The notes beneath the pieces were generated by a model that worked only from the letters and a program-made list of their open reading frames with translations, searched no databases and was not told the origin of the DNA. A stretch of DNA of 4,947 nt from a virus (Duplodnaviria; Heunggongvirae; Uroviricota; Caudoviricetes), in the IMG/VR virus record IMGVR_UViG_2740892439_000004, positions 1 through 4,947 of that record. One strand, 5' to 3'. Position numbers and translations under genes: made by a program. Each line of letters starts with the position of its first letter. The first letter of the stretch is position 1. Below, piece after piece: positions 226-4,947 of the stretch.

Positions 226-714
226 ATGAACCAATTAGAAGAAAAGCTTCAAAGAATGATTTCCTTATACAAGGAAGATAACTGCCAAAAAGTTCCTGAA
301 AACATCGCAGAGTTAATGGAATTGGCAAGTGAATTTTCTGGCATGCTTAAGTCGTCAGGTGTTCGGTCAGCGTTCTTTGTTGAAATGCTGATGCACGGCG
401 GACTTATGGCAACAATGAGACGTGTAATGGAAGACCAGAGAAAAGAACCTCCTCAGGTATACGTTTTGTCATCGAAGAAAACTGGGCTAACCAAAATTGG
501 GTATTCATCCAACATTCCACAACGCATCAAATCGCTTGGCAACTCTGGACCAGACTGCTTGAAGCTTGAGTGCCTGATCCCTGGTGGAAGAGAAACTGAA
601 AACATGCTTCATCGCAAATTTGCCGCAAAGAGAAAGCACGGTGAATGGTTCGCCCTGTCCAAGGATGACATTGAGGGATTGAAATCTGTAGCGATTACTT
701 CTGATGGCTATTAA
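226..714 (+). CDS. T5orf172 / GIY-YIG-like domain protein with an uncharacterised N-terminal helical domain (163 aa)
   Basis: ORF-track frame 190..714. I prefer the ATG at 226 (MNQLEEK...) because AAGG at 212-215 sits about 10 nt upstream, whereas 190 is a GTG with no RBS. The C-terminal half carries the motif series VYVL...GLTKIGYS...RIKSL...ENMLHRKF...GEWF that I recognise as the T5orf172 (PF10544-type, GIY-YIG-related) fold. Very AT-rich codon usage compared with the lambda structural genes downstream. Stop TAA at 712-714. Confidence 0.75.
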   Translation: MNQLEEKLQRMISLYKEDNCQKVPENIAELMELASEFSGMLKSSGVRSAFFVEMLMHGGLMATMRRVMEDQRKEPPQVYVLSSKKTGLTKIGYSSNIPQRIKSLGNSGPDCLKLECLIPGGRETENMLHRKFAAKRKHGEWFALSKDDIEGLKSVAITSDGY

Positions 715-2482: not shown

Positions 2483-2671
2483 ATGGAAGTCAACAAAAAG
2501 CAGCTGGCTGACATTTTCGGTGCGAGTATCCGTACCATTCAGAACTGGCAGGAACAGGGAATGCCCGTTCTGCGAGGCGGTGGCAAGGGTAATGAGGTGC
2601 TTTATGACTCTGCCGCCGTCATAAAATGGTATGCCGAAATCTGGCGGATCCGGCGCGTGAGTTCACCATGA
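2483..2671 (+). pseudogene. nu1: terminase small subunit Nu1, truncated after codon 52 by an internal deletion
   Basis: MEVNKKQLADIFGASIRTIQNWQEQGMPVLRGGGKGNEVLYDSAAVIKWYAE matches the lambda gpNu1 N-terminus (winged-HTH DNA-binding region). After nucleotide 2639 the frame reads IWRIRRVSSP and stops at 2669-2671. Confidence 0.85.
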
Positions 2672-2736
2672 TTCAGTCAGCACCGCTGATGCTGCTGGCT
2701 GACCCTGATGAGTTCGTGTCCGTACAACTGGCGTAA
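2640..2736 (+). pseudogene. E: 3-prime remnant of major capsid gene E (last ~32 codons)
   Basis: The frame ending at TAA 2734-2736 reads ...LADPAREFTMIQSAPLMLLADPDEFVSVQLA, matching the lambda gpE C-terminus (...DPAREFTMIQSAPLMLLADPDEFVSVQLA). It has no start codon and is out of frame with the Nu1 stub. Confidence 0.7.
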
Positions 2737-2777: not shown

Positions 2778-3176
2778 ATGACGAAAGATGAACTGATTGC
2801 CCGTCTCCGCTCGCTGGGTGAACAACTGAACCGTGATGTCAGCCTGACGGGGACGAAAGAAGAACTGGCGCTCCGTGTGGCAGAGCTGGAAGAGGAGCTT
2901 GATGACACGGATGAAACTGCCGGTCAGGACACCCCTCTCAGCCGGGAAAATGTGCTGACCGGACATGAAAATGAGGTGGGATCAGCGCAGCCGGATACCG
3001 TGATTCTGGATACGTCTGAACTGGTCACGGTCGTGGCACTGGTGAAGCTGCATACTGATGCACTTCACGCCACGCGGGATGAACCTGTGGCATTTGTGCT
3101 GCCGGGAACGGCGTTTCGTGTCTCTGCCGGTGTGGCAGCCGAAATGACAGAGCGCGGCCTGGCCAGAATGCAATAA
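2778..3176 (+). CDS. FI: head-tail joining / DNA packaging protein FI (132 aa)
   Basis: MTKDELIARLRSLGEQLNRDVSLTGTKEELALRVAELEEELDDTDETAGQDTPLSRENVL... matches lambda gpFI almost exactly. GGAGGA lies 4 nt before the ATG at 2778. The ORF-track start at 2739 is an upstream in-frame extension. Stop TAA at 3174-3176. Confidence 0.9.
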   Translation: MTKDELIARLRSLGEQLNRDVSLTGTKEELALRVAELEEELDDTDETAGQDTPLSRENVLTGHENEVGSAQPDTVILDTSELVTVVALVKLHTDALHATRDEPVAFVLPGTAFRVSAGVAAEMTERGLARMQ

Positions 3177-3552: not shown

Positions 3553-4130
3553 ATGGCCATAAAAGGTCTTGAGCAGGCCGTTGAAAACCTCAGCCGTATC
3601 AGCAGAACGGCGGTGCCCGGTGCCGCCGCAATGGCCATTAACCGCGTTGCTTCATCCGCGATATCGCAGTCGGTGGTACAGGTTGCCCGTGAGACAAAGG
3701 TACGCCGGAAACTGGTAAAGGAAAGGGCCAGGCTGAAAAGGGCCACGGTCAAAAATCCGCAGGCCAGAATCAAGGTTAACCGGGGGGATTTGCCCGTAAT
3801 AAAGCTGGGTAACGCGCGGGTTGTCCTGTCCCGACGCAGGCGTCGTAAAAAGGGGCAGCGTTCAGCCTGAAAGGTGGCGGCAGTGTGCTTGTGGTGGGTA
3901 ACCGTCGTATTCCCGGCGCGTTTATTCAGCAACTGAAAAACGGCCGGTGGCATGTTATGCAGCGTGTGGCCGGGAAAAACCGTTACCCCATTGATGTGGT
4001 GAAAATCCCGATGGCGGTGCCGCTGACCACGGCGTTTAAACAGAATATTGAACGGATACGGCGTGAACGTCTTCCGAAAGAGCTGGGCTATGCGCTGCAG
4101 CATCAACTGAGGATGGTAATAAAGCGATGA
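3553..4130 (+). pseudogene. Z: tail completion protein Z, disrupted by a 1-nt frameshift
   Basis: 3553-3870 encodes the gpZ N-terminus (MAIKGLEQAVENLSRIS...RRRRRKKGQRS) and then stops. 3885-4130, in another frame, encodes the gpZ C-terminus (LVVGNRRIPGAFIQQLKNGRWHVMQR...HQLRMVIKR). The total span is 578 nt, one short of an intact 579-nt Z, placing a single-base deletion near 3862-3867. Confidence 0.8.
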
Positions 4131-4522
4131 AACATACTGAACTCCGTGCAGCCGTACTGGATGCACTGGAGAAGCATGACACCGGGGCGACGTTTTTTGA
4201 TGGTCGCCCCGCTGTTTTTGATGAGGCGGATTTTCCGGCAGTTGCCGTTTATCTCACCGGCGCTGAATACACGGGCGAAGAGCTGGACAGCGATACCTGG
4301 CAGGCGGAGCTGCATATCGAAGTTTTCCTGCCTGCTCAGGTGCCGGATTCAGAGCTGGATGCGTGGATGGAGTCCCGGATTTATCCGGTGATGAGCGATA
4401 TCCCGGCACTGTCAGATTTGATCACCAGTATGGTGGCCAGCGGCTATGACTACCGGCGCGACGATGATGCGGGCCTGTGGAGTTCAGCCGATCTGACTTA
4501 TGTCATTACCTATGAAATGTGA
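4127..4522 (+). CDS. U: tail terminator protein U (131 aa)
   Basis: MKHTELRAAVLDALEKHDTGATFFDGRPAVFDEADFPAVAVYLTGAEYTGEELDSDTWQAELHIEVFLP... matches lambda gpU. Its ATG overlaps the Z stop (ATGA at 4127-4130), as in lambda. Confidence 0.9.
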   Translation: MKHTELRAAVLDALEKHDTGATFFDGRPAVFDEADFPAVAVYLTGAEYTGEELDSDTWQAELHIEVFLPAQVPDSELDAWMESRIYPVMSDIPALSDLITSMVASGYDYRRDDDAGLWSSADLTYVITYEM

Positions 4523-4529
4523 GGACGCT

Positions 4530-4550
4530 ATGCCTGTACGGAAACATTGA
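4530..4550 (+). pseudogene. V: remnant of major tail protein gene V (start plus 2 codons, then deletion junction)
   Basis: GAGGA RBS followed by atgcctgtac, identical to the lambda V start (MPV). The sequence diverges from lambda at 4540 and the frame stops at 4548-4550 (MPVRKH*). Confidence 0.6.
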
Positions 4551-4947
4551 CTTTATCGAGATCTCGGCGCGCGGTCTGCCTTCTTCGCTTACTGCTGATA
4601 ATGTATCTCGTTACCTGAGTATACGCCGTTTAGGGCCAACCGGGCTAATCAATAGCATGCAAATGCGTTACGGCCTGGTTAAAGATGATGGCTTTATTGA
4701 GGTTTGGGCCTTCCAGCGTGCATTTATCAACGGCGCAAAGGTTGCGGTACTGGCGCAGACGGCACGCACGGAATTATACATTCCAGACGGATTTGTTAAG
4801 CAAACCGCCGCGCCTTCTGGATATGTTGAAAGCCCCGTTGTAAGGATTTACGACCAGTTAAACAAGCCGACTAAAGCAGATTTGGGTCTTTCTAATGCTA
4901 TGCTTACAGGCGCTTTCGGTCTTGGCGGTAGCGGGATAGCAACAACC
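4540..4947 (+). CDS. 5-prime-truncated ORF fragment of unknown function (136 codons, runs off the window end), fused at the V deletion junction
   Basis: Frame 1 is open from 4516 to the window end (...GNIDFIEISARGLPSSLTADNVSRYLSIRRLGPTGLINSMQMRYGLVKDDGFIEVWAFQRAFINGAKVAVLAQTARTELYIPDGFVKQTAAPSGYVESPVVRIYDQLNKPTKADLGLSNAMLTGAFGLGGSGIATT). All three minus-strand frames are interrupted by stops every 180 nt or less here. No start codon with an RBS, and I do not recognise it as a lambda protein. The first in-frame ATG (4657) has no SD. Confidence 0.45.

Follow-up and report, generated by a model that had tools for sequence, protein, structure and literature searches.

At the right end of the window (the whole stretch of 4,947 nucleotides that was analysed), a lambda-type gene V begins and, after three codons, gives way to an open frame of another gene, which raises the questions of what this downstream gene is and how it came to stand behind the start of V. 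In one junction alignment, we compared the window with the U-V sequences of phage lambda and of the lambda-type prophage L004 (from CUPS03), and with the side tail fibre (stf) genes of E. coli HS, phage Ayreon and CUPS03. The features concerned are as follows:

4127..4522, plus strand: U, the tail terminator gene, intact (131 aa), a listed ORF annotated as 'phage minor tail U family protein' in locus L001 of E. coli strain 300081 and the last complete lambda-type gene before the scar.
4521..4550, plus strand: V remnant, with the RBS GAGGA at 4521-4525, the ATG at 4530, and a 6-codon ORF (MPVRKH) closed by TGA at 4548-4550; identical to the V start of lambda and L004 through 4539.
4537..4539, no strand: probable deletion junction, a TAC microhomology of 3 bp (V nt 8-10 and stf codon Tyr389), from the three-way alignment.
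4540..4947, plus strand: 5'-truncated stf, codons 390-525 of 1258, a T5 pb1-like shaft module identified by tblastn, blastp and PHROGs; the ORF runs past the window to residue 1258 in L001.

In a base-by-base comparison, the lambda-type U–V sequence extends to 4539 (ATGCCTGTAC) and divergence sets in from 4540, as the first-pass annotation had it. Window positions 4400-4539, which take in the 3' end of U, have an identity of 100% with L004 and of 99.3% with phage lambda, and the RBS, the ATG and the first 10 nt are those of the gene for lambda gpV (NP_040592.1), of which only 3 codons remain here. On the other side, nucleotide alignment from 4537 gave 99.8% identity to E. coli HS stf and 99.0% to phage Ayreon stf, and megablast of 4400-4947 found, from about 4533-4537 on, 99.5-99.8% identity to a gene that many genomes of E. 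coli carry, its annotation being either "prophage tail fiber N-terminal domain-containing protein" or "pyocin knob domain-containing S74 family peptidase". The V parent reads ...ATGCCTGTAC|CAAATCC, the stf parent ...GGCTCCCCTTAC|GGAAACATTGAC, and the window ATGCCTGTACGGAAACATTGAC. The TAC at 4537-4539 is common to V and stf, so that the stf-like sequence starts already at 4537, and 5/7 bases of 4533-4539 match between both parents. No IS end, filler or other foreign DNA is present in the alignment at 4539/4540, and an IS-mediated origin of the junction was rejected on the absence of IS sequence there. Translation bore out that the V frame, cut after three codons, stops after MPVRKH and that the frame of 4540 has no stop for 136 codons, up to the window end. 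Since TAC is codon Tyr389 in stf and straddles codons 3 and 4 in V, the stf frame lies +1 relative to the V ATG. The V–stf join is out of frame by one base and makes no translational fusion, and the first-pass annotation, which called V fused to the fragment, is not borne out in that sense.

The homology search proposed for the 136-aa fragment, whose coding nature had been read from the letters alone, gave it a name. It is 99% identical to the Stf of the Qin prophage of E. coli HS, and tblastn against phage genomes matched it to the 'side tail fiber protein' of phage Ayreon (98.5%), to vB_EcoS-640R1 (90%) and to the L-shaped tail fibre protein pb1 of T5 (64%), in which it corresponds to residues 264–399. 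Among the PHROGs profiles, it matches phrog_24369 (tail fiber; E 2e-57, profile positions 264-399), and a Pfam search with the fragment alone gave no match. In strain 300081, which allowed the window to be extended rightward, the frame of 4540 continues as an 876-codon ORF that reaches residue 1258 and is followed by tfa' and a methyltransferase gene; blastp of this ORF against HS Stf gave 863/870 identical residues over 389-1258, and the full remnant matches phrog_24369 with E 8e-220 at positions 263-809. To judge from these matches, the open frame 4540-4947 is residues 390–525 of the 1258-aa product of a lambdoid side tail fibre gene, an identity that we regard as settled because the annotated relatives are near-identical. 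A tblastn of the fragment against lambda 1-23000 returned nothing below E 1 (best E 1.4), neither in V nor in the rest of that range. An indel within V, the reading under which the fragment would align in frame with a V-family protein, was rejected on this result, and so was the middle region of a lambda-type Stf. The same lack of similarity explains why a reader with lambda PaPa in mind did not recognise the fragment.

The remnant is no member of the gpV family, for gpV is about 246 aa long and only ATG CCT GTA C is kept here, in a V frame of 6 codons. Its homology to annotated Stf proteins (98.5% to Ayreon; 863/870 in HS) places it with the latter. Like the Stf of E. coli HS (WP_000290867.1, 1258 aa; 99% at the amino acid level over 389-1258) and of Ayreon (ATP61598.1), it ends in a C-terminal Peptidase_S74 domain (PF13884; residues 733-784 of the L001 remnant, E 6e-12, beyond the window), but unlike them it lacks its own start and residues 1-388, which hold the Ala/Ser-rich repeats and PF08400, the prophage tail fibre N-terminal domain for tail attachment (residues 1-134 of full HS Stf, E 2e-72; absent from the 876-aa remnant). 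Because the PF08400 domain is deleted, we take the remnant as a fragment of an Stf family member and not as a functional member. A PDB sequence search with the remnant gave only a weak match to 6f45 (E 1e-4) on the S74 region, and no pb1 structure was matched.

The first-pass annotation had also suggested a tail-fibre gene of another phage lineage, or a captured gene. The tail-fibre part of this suggestion stands; an origin by capture or from an unrelated phage does not, as stf sits ~12 kb downstream of V in intact lambdoid phages of this type. The likeness to another lineage holds for the shaft module only. Full Stf is a mosaic of four parts, namely the PF08400 N-terminus (1-134), Ala/Ser-rich repeats, a shaft like that of pb1 (55% identical over 790 residues), and a distal part of its own kind that closes with the Peptidase_S74 autochaperone. 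The fragment and the remnant both match the pb1-type shaft profile (phrog_24369), and the fragment resembles residues 264-399 of T5 pb1 (Ltf, YP_006961.1, 1396 aa) at 64%. Full Stf can be aligned with pb1 (55%) over Stf 177-943 and pb1 34-806 only, apart from a weak match in the S74 region. The N-termini differ, pb1 having a collar-binding end and full Stf the lambda-type PF08400, and so do the distal receptor-binding parts, so that neither a pb1-type N-terminus nor a pb1-type receptor-binding tip is found in Stf.

We then located the prophage that carries the window. Megablast against complete E. coli genomes matched strain 300081 over the full length at an identity rounded to 100% (two differences); five other genomes match 80% or more of the window. 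The window genes are, in order, the 5' end of nu1, the 3' end of E, FI, FII, Z, U and the start of V. In strain 300081, the left flank holds argU, int', exo-bet-gam-kil-cIII, IS1, the nin genes, rusA and quuD split by IS3, followed by a porin gene, the lysis genes, a GIY-YIG nuclease gene, a DUF1398 gene, ylcI/ynfO, nu1', E', FI, FII, Z and U; past the junction come the tail-fibre gene, tfa', a methyltransferase gene, another tfa remnant, appY, ompT and envY. This annotation has both marks of DLP12, a lambdoid remnant at argU and a right end at appY-ompT-envY. On gene content and flanks, then, we assign the window to the late-gene remnant of a lambda-type cryptic prophage, which in strain 300081 is DLP12 at argU. 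That lambdoid prophages decay by deletion and keep tail-fibre remnants is textbook knowledge (DLP12, Rac, Qin), and the present locus resembles the DLP12 of K-12 as well as the decayed Rac and Qin in its truncated nohD/nu1, its tail-fibre gene remnants and its IS insertions, and DLP12 also in the argU ... appY-ompT locus (strain 300081). In K-12 DLP12, nohD is presumably followed by tail-fibre-assembly remnants; compared with it, the present variant has kept more of the late genes (E', FI, FII, Z, U, V') as well as a large piece of stf.

An earlier scar lies upstream within the same late-gene remnant (window 2483-2736, junction 2639/2647), where nu1 (= lambda 191-347) runs, across a filler of about 7 nt (TCTGGCG) that creates a GGATCC site, into the final 90 nt of E (= lambda 7071-7160). 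This deletion took the rest of nu1, A, W, B, C, nu3, D and most of E. The proposal that V was joined to the fragment by a second deletion accords with it, the first being the one at about 2639-2647 between nu1 and the 3' end of E.

The gene order of intact relatives suggests how V and stf were brought together. Lambda, CUPS03 (L004) and Ayreon carry U-V-G-T-H-M-L-K-I-J-lom-stf in one late operon, and between the V break-point and stf codon 389 lie 11.9 kb in CUPS03 and 12.35 kb in Ayreon. In E. coli HS, the 1258-aa stf of the Qin prophage directly follows J' and lom, and in Ayreon stf follows J and lom, whereas the remnant here is preceded by U and V', with J and lom deleted upstream, and is followed by a tfa remnant (in L001). 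Because intact relatives carry V and stf in that order, a single deletion of about 12 kb accounts for the junction. The window junction is very probably a decay scar of this kind, a ~12-kb deletion in a lambda-type cryptic prophage that left an stf pseudogene fragment. The ancestor would have been a lambda-type prophage with the canonical order U-V-G-T-H-M-L-K-I-J-lom-stf-tfa, in which one illegitimate deletion of about 12 kb, with its end-points in the TAC microhomology (3 bp), would have taken V from the 4th codon onward, G, T, H, M, L, K, I, J, lom and stf codons 1-388. Left behind would be the V RBS and ATG, heading the 6-codon ORF MPVRKH, and, one base out of frame, stf codons 389-1258, of which 390-525 are visible in the window. 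We infer one microhomology-mediated deletion inside one prophage, and the 3-bp microhomology is weak evidence for any particular mechanism. Among the genomes retrieved, no argU prophage has this exact stf allele with an intact V-to-stf interval. The one-step, single-prophage origin is hence the parsimonious reading and not a direct one, because the intact comparators sit elsewhere (CUPS03 at att-lambda, HS in Qin) or are free phage. L004 of CUPS03 was rejected as an intact DLP12, since it adjoins bioA/ybhB (att-lambda), and serves only as a gene-order comparator.

Conceivably, the junction could instead have arisen by a crossover between two prophages in one chromosome, DLP12 contributing V and Qin or another lambdoid prophage contributing stf. 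The remnant is indeed 99.8% identical to the Qin-prophage stf of strain HS, and stf alleles do exchange patches, as the O9:H10 remnant carries about 190 bp like the CUPS03 allele. Nevertheless, both flanks of the junction are of DLP12 context and in the same orientation, the right side running into tfa', a ybcY-like gene, a tfaX-like gene and appY, and a crossover between prophages would delete or invert the chromosome between the two loci. Homologous recombination as the mechanism is ruled out by the 3 bp that V and stf have in common at the junction. We consider such a crossover very improbable beside the single deletion.

The remnant left by that deletion has neither its own start nor its own RBS nor the PF08400 attachment domain, and none of the tail-shaft and tail-tip genes are left in the prophage. 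As start and N-terminal domain are lost and no tail genes are there to use it, we regard the remnant as a pseudogene fragment without structural function that is probably not expressed as a useful protein. The stf-frame ORF of 876 codons is nevertheless uninterrupted in four of the six genomes that carry the junction (including L001, L009 and L010), a state that most likely reflects a recent deletion. Read differently, this open frame would speak for a truncated Stf (389-1258) that is expressed and serves the host as a free glycan-binding protein or adsorption decoy, with a start by GTGA reinitiation, at the internal ATG 4657 or later. Such a protein would keep the receptor-binding distal part and the S74 autochaperone, and PGAP does annotate internal-start products (625 aa or 453 aa). 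The stf-frame ORF opens at GTG 4519, which overlaps the U stop codon (GTGA), but this overlap is native sequence present in lambda too, which marks it as a chance feature and not an adaptation, and no Shine-Dalgarno sequence precedes the GTG. The promoter and terminator scan found neither promoters nor terminators near the junction, and in L001 an IS3 interrupts quuD, the gene for the late antiterminator. The remnants of L001 and L009 differ by 2 synonymous and 6 non-synonymous changes, very small numbers with a ratio about neutral, which fits relaxed constraint. In two of the six carriers the remnant is truncated by IS3, and in the sister variant L011 it is shorter and frameshifted; these IS3 cuts and the other end-points in sister variants are evidence that the remnant is dispensable. 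An expressed, host-serving Stf is on this balance highly unlikely. The same small probability attaches to the more specific proposal that Stf 389-1258 (distal shaft, tip, S74) would be made by coupling to U at GTGA and kept as a free trimeric surface-glycan-binding protein or phage-adsorption decoy, or be kept as a host-range cassette for superinfecting lambdoid phages by recombination.

Six complete genomes of E. coli share the identical V/stf junction; the strains were isolated in Mozambique, Canada, Malawi, Hong Kong and Ireland, and their hosts are humans and pigs. The 60-nt junction sequence occurs verbatim in all five carrier loci that were fetched, and in megablast the match of the sixth genome (H61, a sister of L010) runs through the junction; a search of the metagenome contigs (metagenome_contigs) for the exact 34-nt junction found no copy. 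Lambdoid late genes are repeated in E. coli genomes, at a median of 3 places per genome, and can mislead assemblers, yet a chimeric join of two phage-like repeats by assembly or sequencing has a practically negligible chance of being the explanation, because the junction is identical in six independently sequenced complete genomes from five countries.

Around the shared junction, the carriers have continued to diverge. IS3 cuts the remnant to 499 codons in 13P484A and EC190486 (L007 7620-8809 and L008 6620-7809, respectively). In EC190486, IS3 is directly followed by ybcH, with tfa', appY, ompT and envY gone, and this loss looks like an IS3-adjacent deletion. The O9:H10 strains (L010 5197-5383, equal to window about 4596-4782) have a patch of ~190 bp in which 15 of the 18 substitutions agree with the CUPS03-type stf. 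The patch indicates that stf alleles have recombined or undergone gene conversion about a junction that is otherwise the same, and its likeness to the CUPS03-type allele would agree with exchange among stf copies. The nu1/E junction is annotated alike in every fetched DLP12 variant, as a packaging protein without its C-terminus beside a fragment without its N-terminus, and some variants that have it end elsewhere: in Z at 3652, where Rhs/T6SS genes follow; in Z at 3900, where a shortened, frameshifted piece of stf follows (L011); or in U at 4314, beside IS26.

In essence, the junction is ordinary prophage decay, known in kind, and creates no new gene. The locus adds one exactly mapped step, with a 3-bp microhomology, to the nested deletions of decaying DLP12-type prophages, and beyond annotation the junction is of little importance. 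Experiments have demonstrated that defective prophage remnants recombine with infecting lambda and are documented donors (PMC3945230); remnants such as this one can donate tail-fibre alleles to incoming lambdoid phages by recombination, which is likewise documented in kind (PMC3945230). Regarding annotation, RefSeq treats the same remnant inconsistently, as a 'pyocin knob domain-containing S74 family peptidase' of 625 aa from an internal ATG in L001 (17273-19150) and as a 'hypothetical protein' from ATG 4657 in L007 (6258-7619). None of the RefSeq annotations of the remnant labels it as a 5'-truncated stf pseudogene, and the region from 4540 on should be relabelled so, in place of a hypothetical protein or a stand-alone peptidase.

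Several smaller observations concern the rest of the window. Of its two differences from strain 300081, one is at 3016 in FI (C in the window, A in the strain) and the other is in Z. Window Z (3553-4130) is frameshifted at about 3866 by the loss of one C from a CCC run, which splits it into the ORFs 3553..3870 and 3885..4130; Z is annotated as intact (579 nt) in strain 300081 and in four other fetched junction carriers, and the frameshift is either a real further step of decay or a homopolymer sequencing error in the window source. At 2293-2306, ahead of the truncated nu1, the window keeps the cos cohesive-end sequence of lambda, GGGCGGCGACCTCG. An ORF of the GIY-YIG nuclease family (226-714, plus strand; WP_016245257.1 in L001), flanked by the lysis genes on one side and the DUF1398/YlcI genes on the other, resembles a moron-like insertion in the stretch from the lysis genes to cos.
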